From IMG/VR virus record IMGVR_UViG_2734482592_000014: DNA of 4,887 nt. One strand, given 5' to 3'. A model generated the notes under the pieces. The model was given only the letters and a program-made list of their open reading frames with translations, was not told where the DNA came from and ran no database searches. The translations under genes were made by a program, and so were the position numbers. Below are positions 733 through 4,887 of this stretch, one piece after another (the stretch's first letter is position 1; every line of letters starts with the position of its first letter). Origin of the DNA: a virus (lineage: Duplodnaviria; Heunggongvirae; Uroviricota; Caudoviricetes).

Positions 733-3700
733 ATGGGTAAAGGCAGCAGTAAGGGGCATACCCCGCGCGAAGCGAAGGACAACCTGAAGTCCACGCAGCT
801 GCTGAGTGTGATCGATGCCATCAGTGAAGGGCCGGTTGAAGGTCCGGTGGATGGATTAAAAAGCGTGCTGCTGAACAGTACGCCGGTGCTGGACAATGAG
901 GGGAATACCAACATCTCCGGCGTCACGGTGGTGTTCCGGGCAGGTGAGCAGGAGCAGTCACCGCCGGAGGGATTTGAATCCTCCGGCTCCGAGACGGTGC
1001 TGGGTACGGAAGTGAAATATGACACGCCGATCACCCGGACCATCACGTCGGCAAACATTGACCGACTGCGTTTTACCTTCGGTGTACAGGCACTGGTGGA
1101 AACCACCTCAAAGGGAGACAGGAATCCGTCTGAAGTTCGCCTGCTGGTTCAGATACAGCGTAACGGTGGCTGGGTGACGGAAAAAGACATCACCATTAAG
1201 GGCAAAACCACCTCGCAGTATCTGGCCTCGGTGGTGGTGGATAACCTGCCGCCGCGCCCGTTTAATATCCGGATGCGCAGAATGACGCCGGACAGCACCA
1301 CAGACCAGCTGCAGAACAAAACGCTCTGGTCGTCATACACCGAAATCATCGATGTGAAACAGTGCTACCCGAACACGGCACTGGTCGGCGTACAGGTGGA
1401 TTCGGAGCAGTTCGGCAGCCAGCAGGTGAGCCGTAATTATCATCTTCGCGGGCGCATTCTGCAGGTGCCGTCGAACTATAATCCGCAGACGCGGCAATAC
1501 AGCGGTATCTGGGACGGAACGTTAAAACCGGCATACAGCAACAACATGGCCTGGTGTCTGTGGGATATGCTGACCCATCCGCGCTATGGCATGGGGAAAC
1601 GTCTTGGTGCGGCAGATGTGGATAAATGGGCGCTGTATGTCATCGGCCAGTACTGTGACCAGTCGGTGCCGGACGGCTTTGGCAGCACGGAGCCGCGCAT
1701 CACCTGTAATGCCTGGCTGACCACACAGCGCAAGGCGTGGGATGTGCTCAGTGATTTCTGCTCGGCGATGCGCTGTATGCCGGTATGGAACGGGCAGACG
1801 CTGACATTCGTGCAGGACCGACAGTCGGATAAGGTGTGGGCCTATAACCGCAGTAATGTGGTGATGCCGGATGATGGCGCGCCGTTCCGCTACAGCTTCA
1901 GCGCCCTGAAAGACCGCCATAATGCCGTTGAGGTGAACTGGATTGACCCGNNNNNNNNNNNNNNNNNNNNNNNNNNNNNNNNNNNNNNNNNNNNNNNNNN
2001 NNNNNNNNNNNNNNNNNNNNNNNNNNNNNNNNNNNNNNNNNNNNNNNNNNNNNNNNNNNNNNNNNNNNNNNNNNNNNNNNNNNNNNNNNNNNNNNNNNNN
2101 NNNNNNNNNNNNNNNNNNNNNNNNNNNNNNNNNNNNNNNNNNNNNNNNNNNNNTCAGCGTGGGTGCTGAAGGGCTTCGTCATGTACCGGGCGATGTCATT
2201 GAAATCTGTGATGATGACTATGCGGGTATCAGCATCGGCGGGCGCGTGCTGGNNNNNNNNNNNNNNNNNNNNNNNNNNNNNNNNNNAACGGCTGGGAGAC
2301 GGCGACAGAGCTTGTGGAGGACACGCAGGCCATTGCCCGTTACGGTCGTAACGTCACGAAGATGGATGCCTTTGGCTGTACCAGCCGGGGGCAGGCACAC
2401 CGCGCAGGGCTGTGGCTGATTAAAACAGAACTGCTGGAAACGCAGACCGTGGACTTCAGCGTGGGCGCAGAAGGGCTTCGCCATGTGCCGGGCGATGTCA
2501 TTGAAATCTGTGATGATGACTATGCCGGTATCAGCACCGGCGGGCGCGTGCTGGCGGTAAACAGCCAGACCCGGACGCTGACGCTCGACCGTGAAATCAC
2601 GCTGCCATCCTCCGGTACCATGCTGATAAGCCTGGTTGACGGAAGTGGCAATCCGGTCAGCGTGGAGGTTCAGTCCGTCACCGACGGCGTGAAGGTGAAA
2701 GTGAGCCGTGTTCCTGACGGCGTTGCTGAATACAGCGTGTGGGGGCTGAAGCTGCCGACGTTGCGCCAGCGCCTGTTCCGCTGTGTGAGTATCCGTGAGA
2801 ACGANNNNNNNNNNNNNNNNNNNNNNNNNNNNNNNNNNNNNNNNNNNNNNNNNNNNNNNNNNNNNNNNNNNNNNNNNNNNNNNNNNNNNNNNNNNNNNNN
2901 NNNNNNNNNNNNNNNNNNNNNNNNNNNNNNNNNNNNNNNNNNNNNNNNNNNNNNNNNNNNNNNNNNNNNNNNNNNNNNNNNNNNNNNNNNNNNNNNNNNN
3001 NNNNNNNNNNNNNNNNNNNNNNNNNNNNNNNNNNNNNNNNNNNNNNNNNNNNNNNNNNNNNNNNNNNNNNNNNNNNNNNNNNNNNNNNNNNNNNNNNNNN
3101 NNNNGCTGACAGTCCGGGCGGTAAATGCCTGGGGACAGCAGGGCGATCCGGCGTCGGTATCGTTCAGGATTGCCGCACCGGTAGCACCGTCGCGGATTGA
3201 NNNNNNNNNNNNNNNNNNNNNNNNNNNNNNNNNNNNNNNNNNNNNNNNNNNNNNNNNNNNNNNNNNNNNNNNNNNNNNNNNNNNNNNNNNNNNNNNNNNN
3301 NNNNNNNNNNNNNNNNNNNNNNNNNNNNNNNNNNNNNNNNNNNNNNNNNNNNNNNNNNNNNNNNNNNNNNNNNNNNNNNNNNNNNNNNNNNNNNNNNNNN
3401 NNNNNNNNNNNNNNNNNNNNNNNNNNNNNNNNNNNNNNNNNNNNNNNNNNCGTGGATAACGGGGCGCACTTTGACGGCGACCAGAGCGGCACGGTGAATG
3501 GTGTCACGCCGCCAGCGGTGCAGCACCTGACTGCCGAAGTCACCGCAGACAGCGGGGAATATCAGGTGCTGGCGCGCTGGGACACGCCGAAGGTGGTGAA
3601 GGGCGTGAGCTTCCTGCTCCGTCTGACCGTAACAGCGGATGACGGCAGTGAGCGGCTGGTCAGCACGGCCCGGACGACGGAAACCACTTACCGCTTCACA

Positions 3701-4887
3701 CAACTGGCGCTGGGGAACTACAGGCTGACAGTCCGGGCAGTAAATGCGTGGGGGCAGCAGGGCGATCCGGCGTCGGTATCGTTCCGGATTGCCGCACCGG
3801 CAGCGCTGTCGCGGATTGAGCTGACGCCGGGCTATTTTCAGATAACCGCCACGCCGCATCTTGCGGTTTATGATCCGACGGTACAGTTTGAGTTCTGGTT
3901 CTCGGAAAAGCGGATTGCGGATATCAGGCAGGTTGAAACCACAGCACGCTATCTTGGCACGGCGCTGTACTGGATAGCCGCCAGTATCAATATCAAACCG
4001 GGCCATGATTATTACTTTTATATCCGCAGTGTGAACACCGTTGGCAAATCGGCATTCGTGGAGGCTGTTGGTCAGCCGAGTGATGATGCATCCGGTTATC
4101 TGGATTTTTTCAAAGGCGAGATAGGGAAAACCCATCTGGCTCAGGAGCTGTGGACGCAGATTGATAACGGTCAGCTTGCGCCTGACCTGGCTGAAATCAG
4201 GACGTCCATTACGGATGTCAGCAATGAAATCACGCAGACCGTCAATAAGAAACTGGAAGACCAGAGTGCGGCAATTCAGCAGATACAGAAGGTTCAGGTT
4301 GATACAAATAATAACCTGAACAGCATGTGGGCTGTGAAGCTGCAGCAGATGCAGGACGGACGCCTTTATATCGCGGGTATTGGTGCCGGTATTGAGAACA
4401 CCCCTGACGGCATGCAGAGTCAGGTGCTGCTGGCGGCGGACAGGATTGCGATGGTTAATCCTGCGAATGGCAACACAAAACCGATGTTTGTTGGTCAGGG
4501 CGATCAGATATTCATGAACGACGTGTTCCTGAAACGCCTGACGGCCCCCACCATTACCAGCGGTGGAAATCCATCGGCATTTTCCCTGACTCCGGACGGA
4601 AAGCTGACCGCTAAAAATGCGGATATCAGTGGCAGTGTGAATGCGAACGCCGGGACGCTCAACAATGTCACGGTAAATGAAAACTGTACGATTAAGGGCA
4701 TGCTGGAGGCGACTCAGGTCAGAGGTGACTTCGTTAAAGCTGTATCCAAATCATTTCCGAAACAGGCTGGTACGTGGGGTAACACGGAAACACCAAACGG
4801 GACGGTTACAGTCACCATAAGCGATGATCATAACTTTGACCGCCAGATTATTATTCCGCCCATTATTTTTAACGGTATAGCGTATGA
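733..4887 (+). CDS. J: Tail tip attachment / host specificity protein J (lambda gpJ family); 5' end complete, 3' end beyond window, interrupted by N runs
   Basis: ATG at 733 sits 8 nt after GGAG (721-724). Readable segments: A 733-1950 ([34 protein letters not shown]...[11 protein letters not shown], phase 1), B 2287-2804 ([20 protein letters not shown]...[10 protein letters not shown], phase 1), C 3452-4887 ([25 protein letters not shown]...IIFNGIAY, phase 2, no stop before window end). All three are collinear with lambda gpJ as I recall it. Phase differs between B and C because the N-run lengths are not true lengths. Confidence 0.9.
1951..2153. other. N run (203 nt), assembly gap or masked sequence inside J
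   Basis: Contiguous n characters; starts on a J codon boundary after ...WIDP. Confidence 0.95.
2154..2252 (+). repeat. 99-nt island between gaps: diverged copy of J segment 2456-2554
   Basis: Manual alignment to 2456-2554 gives 6 mismatches in 99 nt. In the coding phase ([32 protein letters not shown]) 5 are synonymous and 1 changes Thr to Ile. The island is in phase 2, while flanking J segments A and B are in phase 1. Confidence 0.85.
2253..2286. other. N run (34 nt), assembly gap or masked sequence
   Basis: Contiguous n characters. Confidence 0.95.
2805..3104. other. N run (exactly 300 nt), assembly gap or masked sequence inside J
   Basis: Contiguous n characters; round length suggests a placeholder or estimated gap. 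Confidence 0.95.
3105..3200 (+). repeat. 96-nt island between gaps: diverged copy of J segment 3724-3819
   Basis: Manual alignment to 3724-3819 gives 7 mismatches in 96 nt. In coding phase ([31 protein letters not shown]) 5 are synonymous and 2 are nonsynonymous (V/A, P/L versus AAPAALSRI in the main copy). Confidence 0.85.
3201..3450. other. N run (exactly 250 nt), assembly gap or masked sequence inside J
   Basis: Contiguous n characters; round length suggests a placeholder or estimated gap. Confidence 0.95.

Follow-up and report, generated by a model that had tools for sequence, protein, structure and literature searches.

The diverged direct repeat in the gpJ gene of a lambdoid prophage record is probably a scaffolding artefact of known J alleles

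We have analysed a 4,887-nt stretch of an IMG/VR virus record (IMGVR_UViG_2734482592_000014), referred to as a whole as the window, in which one segment of the tail gene J appears twice, at positions 3105–3200 (termed island 2) and again at 3724–3819. We consider this repeat, with a probability of nearly nine in ten, to be a scaffolding artefact of known J alleles and not a genuine duplication. The sequence blocks in the J part of the window are not colinear with the gene, they can be assigned to different alleles, and both alleles exist as normal single-copy J genes. An assembly matter had already been suspected by the first-pass annotation, and the finding of non-colinear, N-joined blocks of different alleles bears this suspicion out.

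The window covers the tail genes I and J. A complete gpI gene (tail assembly protein I, 223 aa) occupies positions 1–672 of the plus strand, and exactly the same protein is present in NCBI E. coli assemblies, where it matches the Pfam family Lambda_tail_I and is immediately followed by gpJ. The J gene starts at 733 and runs past the 3′ end of the window; that is, the gene content of the 4,887 bases is gpI plus gpJ. In the relatives of this locus the genes are arranged as ...L, K, I, J, lom, with the six gpJ Pfam domains. Four N runs interrupt the J part, at 1951–2153, 2253–2286, 2805–3104 and 3201–3450 (203, 34, 300 and 250 N, respectively), leaving five blocks of sequence, namely 1–1950, 2154–2252 (island 1), 2287–2804, 3105–3200 (island 2) and 3451–4887. 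The internal blocks have N runs at all of their boundaries.

In the spacer between I and J (673–732), a short inverted repeat rich in GC (cgcctccgggcgg) precedes a short stretch of T residues; a simple scan for terminators and promoters flagged nothing in this spacer. A "terminator" feature is listed in phage Ayreon (MF807953), somewhere under its match to the window. As to its ends, the window begins with the ATG of gpI (1–3) and finishes with a TGA (4885–4887), and its length equals 3 × 1,629, with frame 1 not open throughout. These ends may be due to the cutting of the window or of the record, e.g., along a gene-model range.

We have compared the two copies of the segment base by base. They align without gaps and are identical at 89 of the 96 positions, and the seven differences counted at first reading, five of them synonymous, were recovered at island positions 16, 25, 31, 62, 78, 82 and 84. 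Written as island/main copy, the synonymous changes are GCG/GCA, GCC/GCG, GGA/GGG, AGG/CGG and GCA/GCG, and the nonsynonymous ones are GTA/GCA (Val/Ala) and CCG/CTG (Pro/Leu). Translation gives AAPVAPSRI for the island and AAPAALSRI for the main copy, in agreement with the earlier reading, and the lambda motif AAPAAPSRI, as given in the first-pass annotation, is indeed found at residues 712–720 of gpJ in NC_001416. Only one other long repeat exists in the window, i.e., island 1 against 2456–2554. Since the remaining repeat families of the window are no longer than 33 nt and no more than 76% identical, the island 2 repeat is far beyond chance. In addition, island 2 aligns ungapped to lambda J nt 2067–2162 with 94.8% identity, and annotated gpJ coding sequences match it at 100%. 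It is a real gpJ fragment by homology, from a defined position of the gene (codons 690–720 plus partial codons at both ends).

For the arrangement of the blocks, we have mapped them on the complete J genes of E. coli Z1323PEC0014 (L001), EC2 (L002), lambda (L003) and two NCBI draft assemblies that encode the same gpI as the window (L004 and L005). In this mapping the J coordinates of the three large blocks run on from one to the next, with 733–1950 (the J part of block 1–1950) corresponding to J nt 1–1218, 2287–2804 to J nt 1222–1739, and 3451–4887, which runs off the window, to J nt 1794–3230, all on the plus strand. Only 3 nt and 54 nt of the real gene fall between these blocks, against 336 and 646 positions in the window, and 4,885 window positions correspond to ~3,960 nt in phage genomes. 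The two islands, also on the plus strand, represent J nt 1391–1489 (island 1) and 2067–2162 (island 2); each of them duplicates J coordinates that are covered by the next block, and stands upstream of where it belongs.

The gap lengths were then set against the distances in the real gene. Two of the four joins would require a negative distance, −268 nt at the 34-N run and −369 nt at the 250-N run, as the pieces joined there overlap by these lengths in the coordinates of the real gene. The remaining two gaps come close to the true spacing, with 203 N against a real distance of 172 nt from the end of the first block to the start of island 1, and 300 N against the 327 nt that lie between the equivalents of block 2287–2804 and island 2 in the J genes of EC2, L155 and L038. 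If the record is translated as written from the ATG at 733, the J frame is lost in island 1 and in block 3451–4887; N runs flank island 2, which is out of J order, and the frame is broken across the blocks. Such block order and spacing are incompatible with the real gene. This geometry is the signature of parallel allelic contigs put in a single line by a scaffolder, not of a gene. We have also observed that four of the eight block ends coincide exactly with differences between L004 and EC2 (binomial P about 5e-4), as is expected if contigs end at branch points, and that two of the eight do so when L155 is taken as allele B (P about 0.06). This coincidence, which is weak and post hoc, is no more than suggestive of contig breaks at allele branch points.

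The assignment of the blocks to alleles is as follows. Block 1–1950 is 99.8% identical (4 mismatches) to L004, L006, L007 and L087, and 95.8% identical to EC2. Block 3451–4887 is 100% identical over its 1,437 nt to L004, L005, L006, L007 and L087, and the J genes of EC2 and HCP5S3_I2 are only ~93% identical to window positions 3451–4154 and diverge further downstream. We refer to the allele of these two blocks as allele A; a full-length J of this type is located at 6733–10230 of L004 (GCA_014387165.1, AAVRRB010000054.1). For block 2287–2804 the identity to allele A (L004) is 94.6% (28 mismatches), while it reaches 98.8% to EC2 and 99.4% to L155, so that the block is closest to J genes that carry island 2. 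The EC2 J is identical to it from J nt 1473 onward, and over the last 249 nt of the block the identity is 100% to a piece of L038 that also holds island 2; no exact match to the entire block was found anywhere searched, including the complete E. coli genomes. For island 2 itself, a gpJ with 100% identity is present in 7 complete E. coli genomes as well as in EC2, L038, L155 and L164. Considering that in EC2, L155 and L038 the same J carries both island 2 exactly and close or exact matches to block 2287–2804, the matches of both pieces point to an EC2-like allele B.

Judged from these matches, the supposed main copy is an A/B/A patchwork of two alleles. It had been proposed that the island derives from a different lambdoid lineage than the main J of the window. 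The different-allele origin stands, since island 2 is exactly the EC2-type sequence and the EC2 J is ~93% identical to the region that contains its counterpart, with 3724–3819 lying within the block that equals the L004-type J; the notion of a single main J does not stand, given the A/B/A blocks. The EC2 prophage gpJ (WP_179231390.1, NZ_CP058571.1, 2378749–2382162) shares the segment with island 2 at 100% identity, as do HCP5S3_I2, NCTC9082, SW0716xx and the IMG/VR loci L155 and L038. Unlike the window, the EC2-type genomes have the segment once per J, in an intact 3.4 kb gene and without a neighbouring second copy. A J protein predicted from the present record would be an artificial recombinant.

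For island 1 the ancestry is less definite. It is 94% identical to 2456–2554, which has the same J coordinates; among its polymorphic sites, those at J nt 1401, 1404, 1416 and 1422 agree with L004, and those at 1446, 1461, 1468 and 1472 with EC2. An exact match was found neither in 5,426 complete E. coli genomes nor in the collections genome_contigs, viral_contigs and metagenome_contigs. Among the complete genomes no place reaches at least 99% identity, the best of those listed being 99.0% after rounding (1 mismatch in 99). The join across the 34-N run also had no match in viral_contigs. Island 1 would represent a third allele of J or a chimeric consensus that merges two alleles.

We have further looked at how often the segment is repeated in related loci. 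Our panel comprises 163 of them, and 158 hold the island 2 segment. More than one copy was seen in a single locus of these 158 (L038, with four copies), and in none of the 158 do two copies stand on uninterrupted sequence. L038 (IMGVR_UViG_2700989365_000006) represents the terminal part of a scaffold from an IMG isolate genome (taxon 2700989365); its positions 1–5021 are contig positions 33981–39001, with N joins at 698, 1903 and 3820. It consists of four J fragments from four different alleles, with single-N joins; each fragment restarts at J nt 1491–1942. Where they overlap, the first piece equals allele A at 100% identity and contains the Leu codon, and the second likewise equals allele B and contains island 2; the second piece is also 100% identical to the EC2 J over 1,204 nt. 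This locus shows that J-fragment scaffolds do occur and that fragments which equal both alleles of the window, where they overlap, can be present in one isolate assembly. As in the window, fragments of paralogous J genes are laid end to end in L038 and restart at about the same J coordinate; unlike the window, where the N runs measure 34–300, its joins are single Ns, and its fragments are longer. L038 is not the assembly of the window, since island 1 is absent from viral_contigs. Extension of L038 upstream by its junction pattern returned the same locus, and the L038 contig was not among the matches of a search with the J N-terminal part. L038 is a public IMG/VR "viral contig" with a mis-scaffolded prophage end, which would inflate counts of repeats and tail fibres.

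In complete E. coli genomes, the places that match this part of J have a median number of 2 per genome and go up to 13, and the genomes with an exact island 2 have 1–3 places that match the segment. The island allele itself is found once in such genomes, where an ordinary prophage carries it within its intact gpJ. In HCP5S3_I2, for example, the island-bearing J belongs to a prophage adjoining potB, and two further places that match the segment lie outside the 40 kb examined around this J. Short-read assembly of E. coli with several homologous prophages is a documented difficulty (PMC9453080). As a separate observation, the prophage J of E. coli Z1323PEC0014 is the best complete-genome match to block 3451–4887, and the type III effector gene cif lies downstream of the tail-fibre genes in this locus (L001, 8965–9813).

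The first-pass annotation had also regarded island 2 as closer to lambda than the main copy at one motif, on account of the Pro that the island retains there. We have addressed this by a haplotype table of 110 distinct (de-duplicated) J contexts, which form 47 haplotypes, with the second L038 piece set aside; a table was preferred to a 96-nt tree because the informative sites are too few and J is mosaic. The closer relation to lambda could not be upheld. It concerns one residue only, and as Pro717 is present in 107 of the 110 contexts, this residue is uninformative. Counted over the entire segment, the island agrees with lambda at 91/96 nt and 30/31 aa, leaving differences of 5 nt and 1 aa, and the main copy differs by 4 nt and 1 aa. 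The private states of the island, AGG at 3166 and GTA (Val715) at 3182, are common only to EC2 and L155 among the 110 contexts, and are also seen in the second L038 piece and in L164; the nearest other haplotype is 4 nt away from the island. The allele A haplotype, on the other side, equals the commonest haplotype of the panel plus one C-to-T change (Leu717), and Leu717 is a rare, derived state of allele A.

At the level of the entire gene, the A-type J (L004), the B-type J (EC2) and lambda are mutually ~95% identical over J nt 1–2500. The complete J genes with the island sequence stay at ~95% to lambda up to nt 2957–2970, while allele A after about nt 2500 falls to 79% (nt 2667–3054) and then is not alignable to lambda. 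If allele B of the source resembles EC2 downstream, it would be the more lambda-like of the two in its distal part, as far as can be told from relatives in a highly mosaic family. This point speaks for the first-pass view, with support drawn from relatives rather than from the 96-nt segment. The lambda gpJ (NP_040600) agrees with the window J in its position after gpI, and shares its architecture of FNIII-A_GpJ, Phage-tail_3, Ig_J, Ig_J_second, Phage_Tail_Tip and Ig_GpJ_C. Compared with lambda, island 2 has Val715 in place of Ala and 4 synonymous changes, and the main allele has Leu717 in place of Pro and a different distal part. Contamination by lambda vector DNA was considered and rejected, as the island differs from lambda at 5 nt.

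Based on the above analyses, we propose the following origin of the repeat. The window would be a draft scaffold across the I–J tail genes of a lambdoid prophage, and the sequenced DNA would have contained a minimum of two J alleles, and probably three or more, that are ~93–95% identical to each other. The number and the phasing of these alleles are suggested by sequence identities, with island 1 and block 2287–2804 having no exact match. A single E. coli genome with several prophages could have supplied the alleles, or else a mixture of strains. The J genes would have been broken up in short-read assembly, and the scaffolder would have lined up pieces of different alleles between N runs. In this process, island 2, as a piece of an EC2-type gpJ, would have been placed ~300 N after block 2287–2804, near its true distance of 327 nt, and the allele A piece 3451–4887, which covers the same J coordinates, would have been appended after it. 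The result would be an apparent diverged direct repeat 619 nt apart.

Other readings of the repeat have to be weighed against this one. The same artefact could have taken its second allele from a second strain or a contaminant, in a metagenome or a mixed culture, and not from a second prophage. Contigs of 96–99 nt together with heavy fragmentation are typical of low-coverage minor variants, and island 1 and block 2287–2804, which match no complete genome exactly, could be a chimeric consensus of mixed reads. Yet several J copies per E. coli genome are normal, as the median of 2 and the maximum of 13 indicate, and an isolate scaffold, L038, holds fragments identical to both alleles where they overlap. 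A mixed sample is rather unlikely, and we favour co-resident prophages as the source of the second allele because of L038 and the usual copy number of J. It is very improbable, by comparison, that partial tandem duplications really exist inside J, with extra copies of J nt 1391–1489 and 2067–2162 upstream and the N runs standing for unsequenced stretches of the given lengths. Both copies do lie on one record in direct orientation; however, neither period (302 and 619 nt) is divisible by 3, so that J would be broken, and the joins leave out no more than 3 nt and 54 nt of the real J. The panel, with 0/158 loci having two uninterrupted copies and N joins in its multi-copy locus, argues in the same direction. 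Furthermore, a repeat that is 7% diverged and identical to the normal J of another strain is just what a second allele predicts, and a local duplication does not.

The remaining two readings would give the repeat a biological role. As an imperfect direct repeat of ~100 nt within a phage tail gene, it superficially resembles the targets of diversity-generating retroelements, and one might take it for a template/variable repeat pair, or for another programmed cassette that diversifies the tail tip. Against this, the differences (G/A, C/G, A/G, A/C, T/C, A/G and C/T) are not adenine-specific, and 5 of the 7 are synonymous; the window, with I and J only, encodes no reverse transcriptase, and the related loci are standard tail modules. 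The segment, moreover, falls in an Ig-like domain and linker instead of a C-terminal variable region, and both of its versions are fixed alleles in many genomes. We have rejected the retroelement reading on its substitution pattern, which involves all four bases in both directions, and consider any programmed cassette of this kind next to negligible. It is likewise highly improbable that the extra J fragments lie on one molecule as silent, diverged donor cassettes upstream of their expressed counterparts, from which gene conversion would diversify the Ig-like region. We therefore retain the scaffolding artefact of known J alleles as the best explanation.

With respect to function, codons 690–720 comprise the end of the Pfam domain Ig_J (610–714) and the linker to Ig_J_second (716/718–818). 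The two replacements, A715V in the island and P717L in allele A, are located in this linker, which is rich in Ala and Pro and lies well away from the receptor-binding domain at the C terminus (Ig_GpJ_C of lambda covers 1001–1132). Since it is the C-terminal domain of gpJ that determines host range, no phenotype would be expected from the changes at 715 and 717. The distal part of the main allele (window about 4100–4887) belongs to a 1,165-aa J type whose match to Ig_GpJ_C is weak, with 89 bits against 247 for lambda, and its receptor specificity probably differs from that of lambda. Biologically, island 2 is ordinary allelic variation at the end of an Ig-like domain and in the adjoining linker.

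It is already well known that E. coli genomes carry several mosaic lambdoid prophages each, with J genes that are ~93–95% identical, and the alleles found here belong to this known variation. The J of the present record is a chimeric scaffold, in the order of allele A, a stray fragment, allele B, a second stray fragment and again allele A. This matters only as a quality flag: the J of this record is unfit for allele typing, host-range inference, recombination analysis and repeat discovery.
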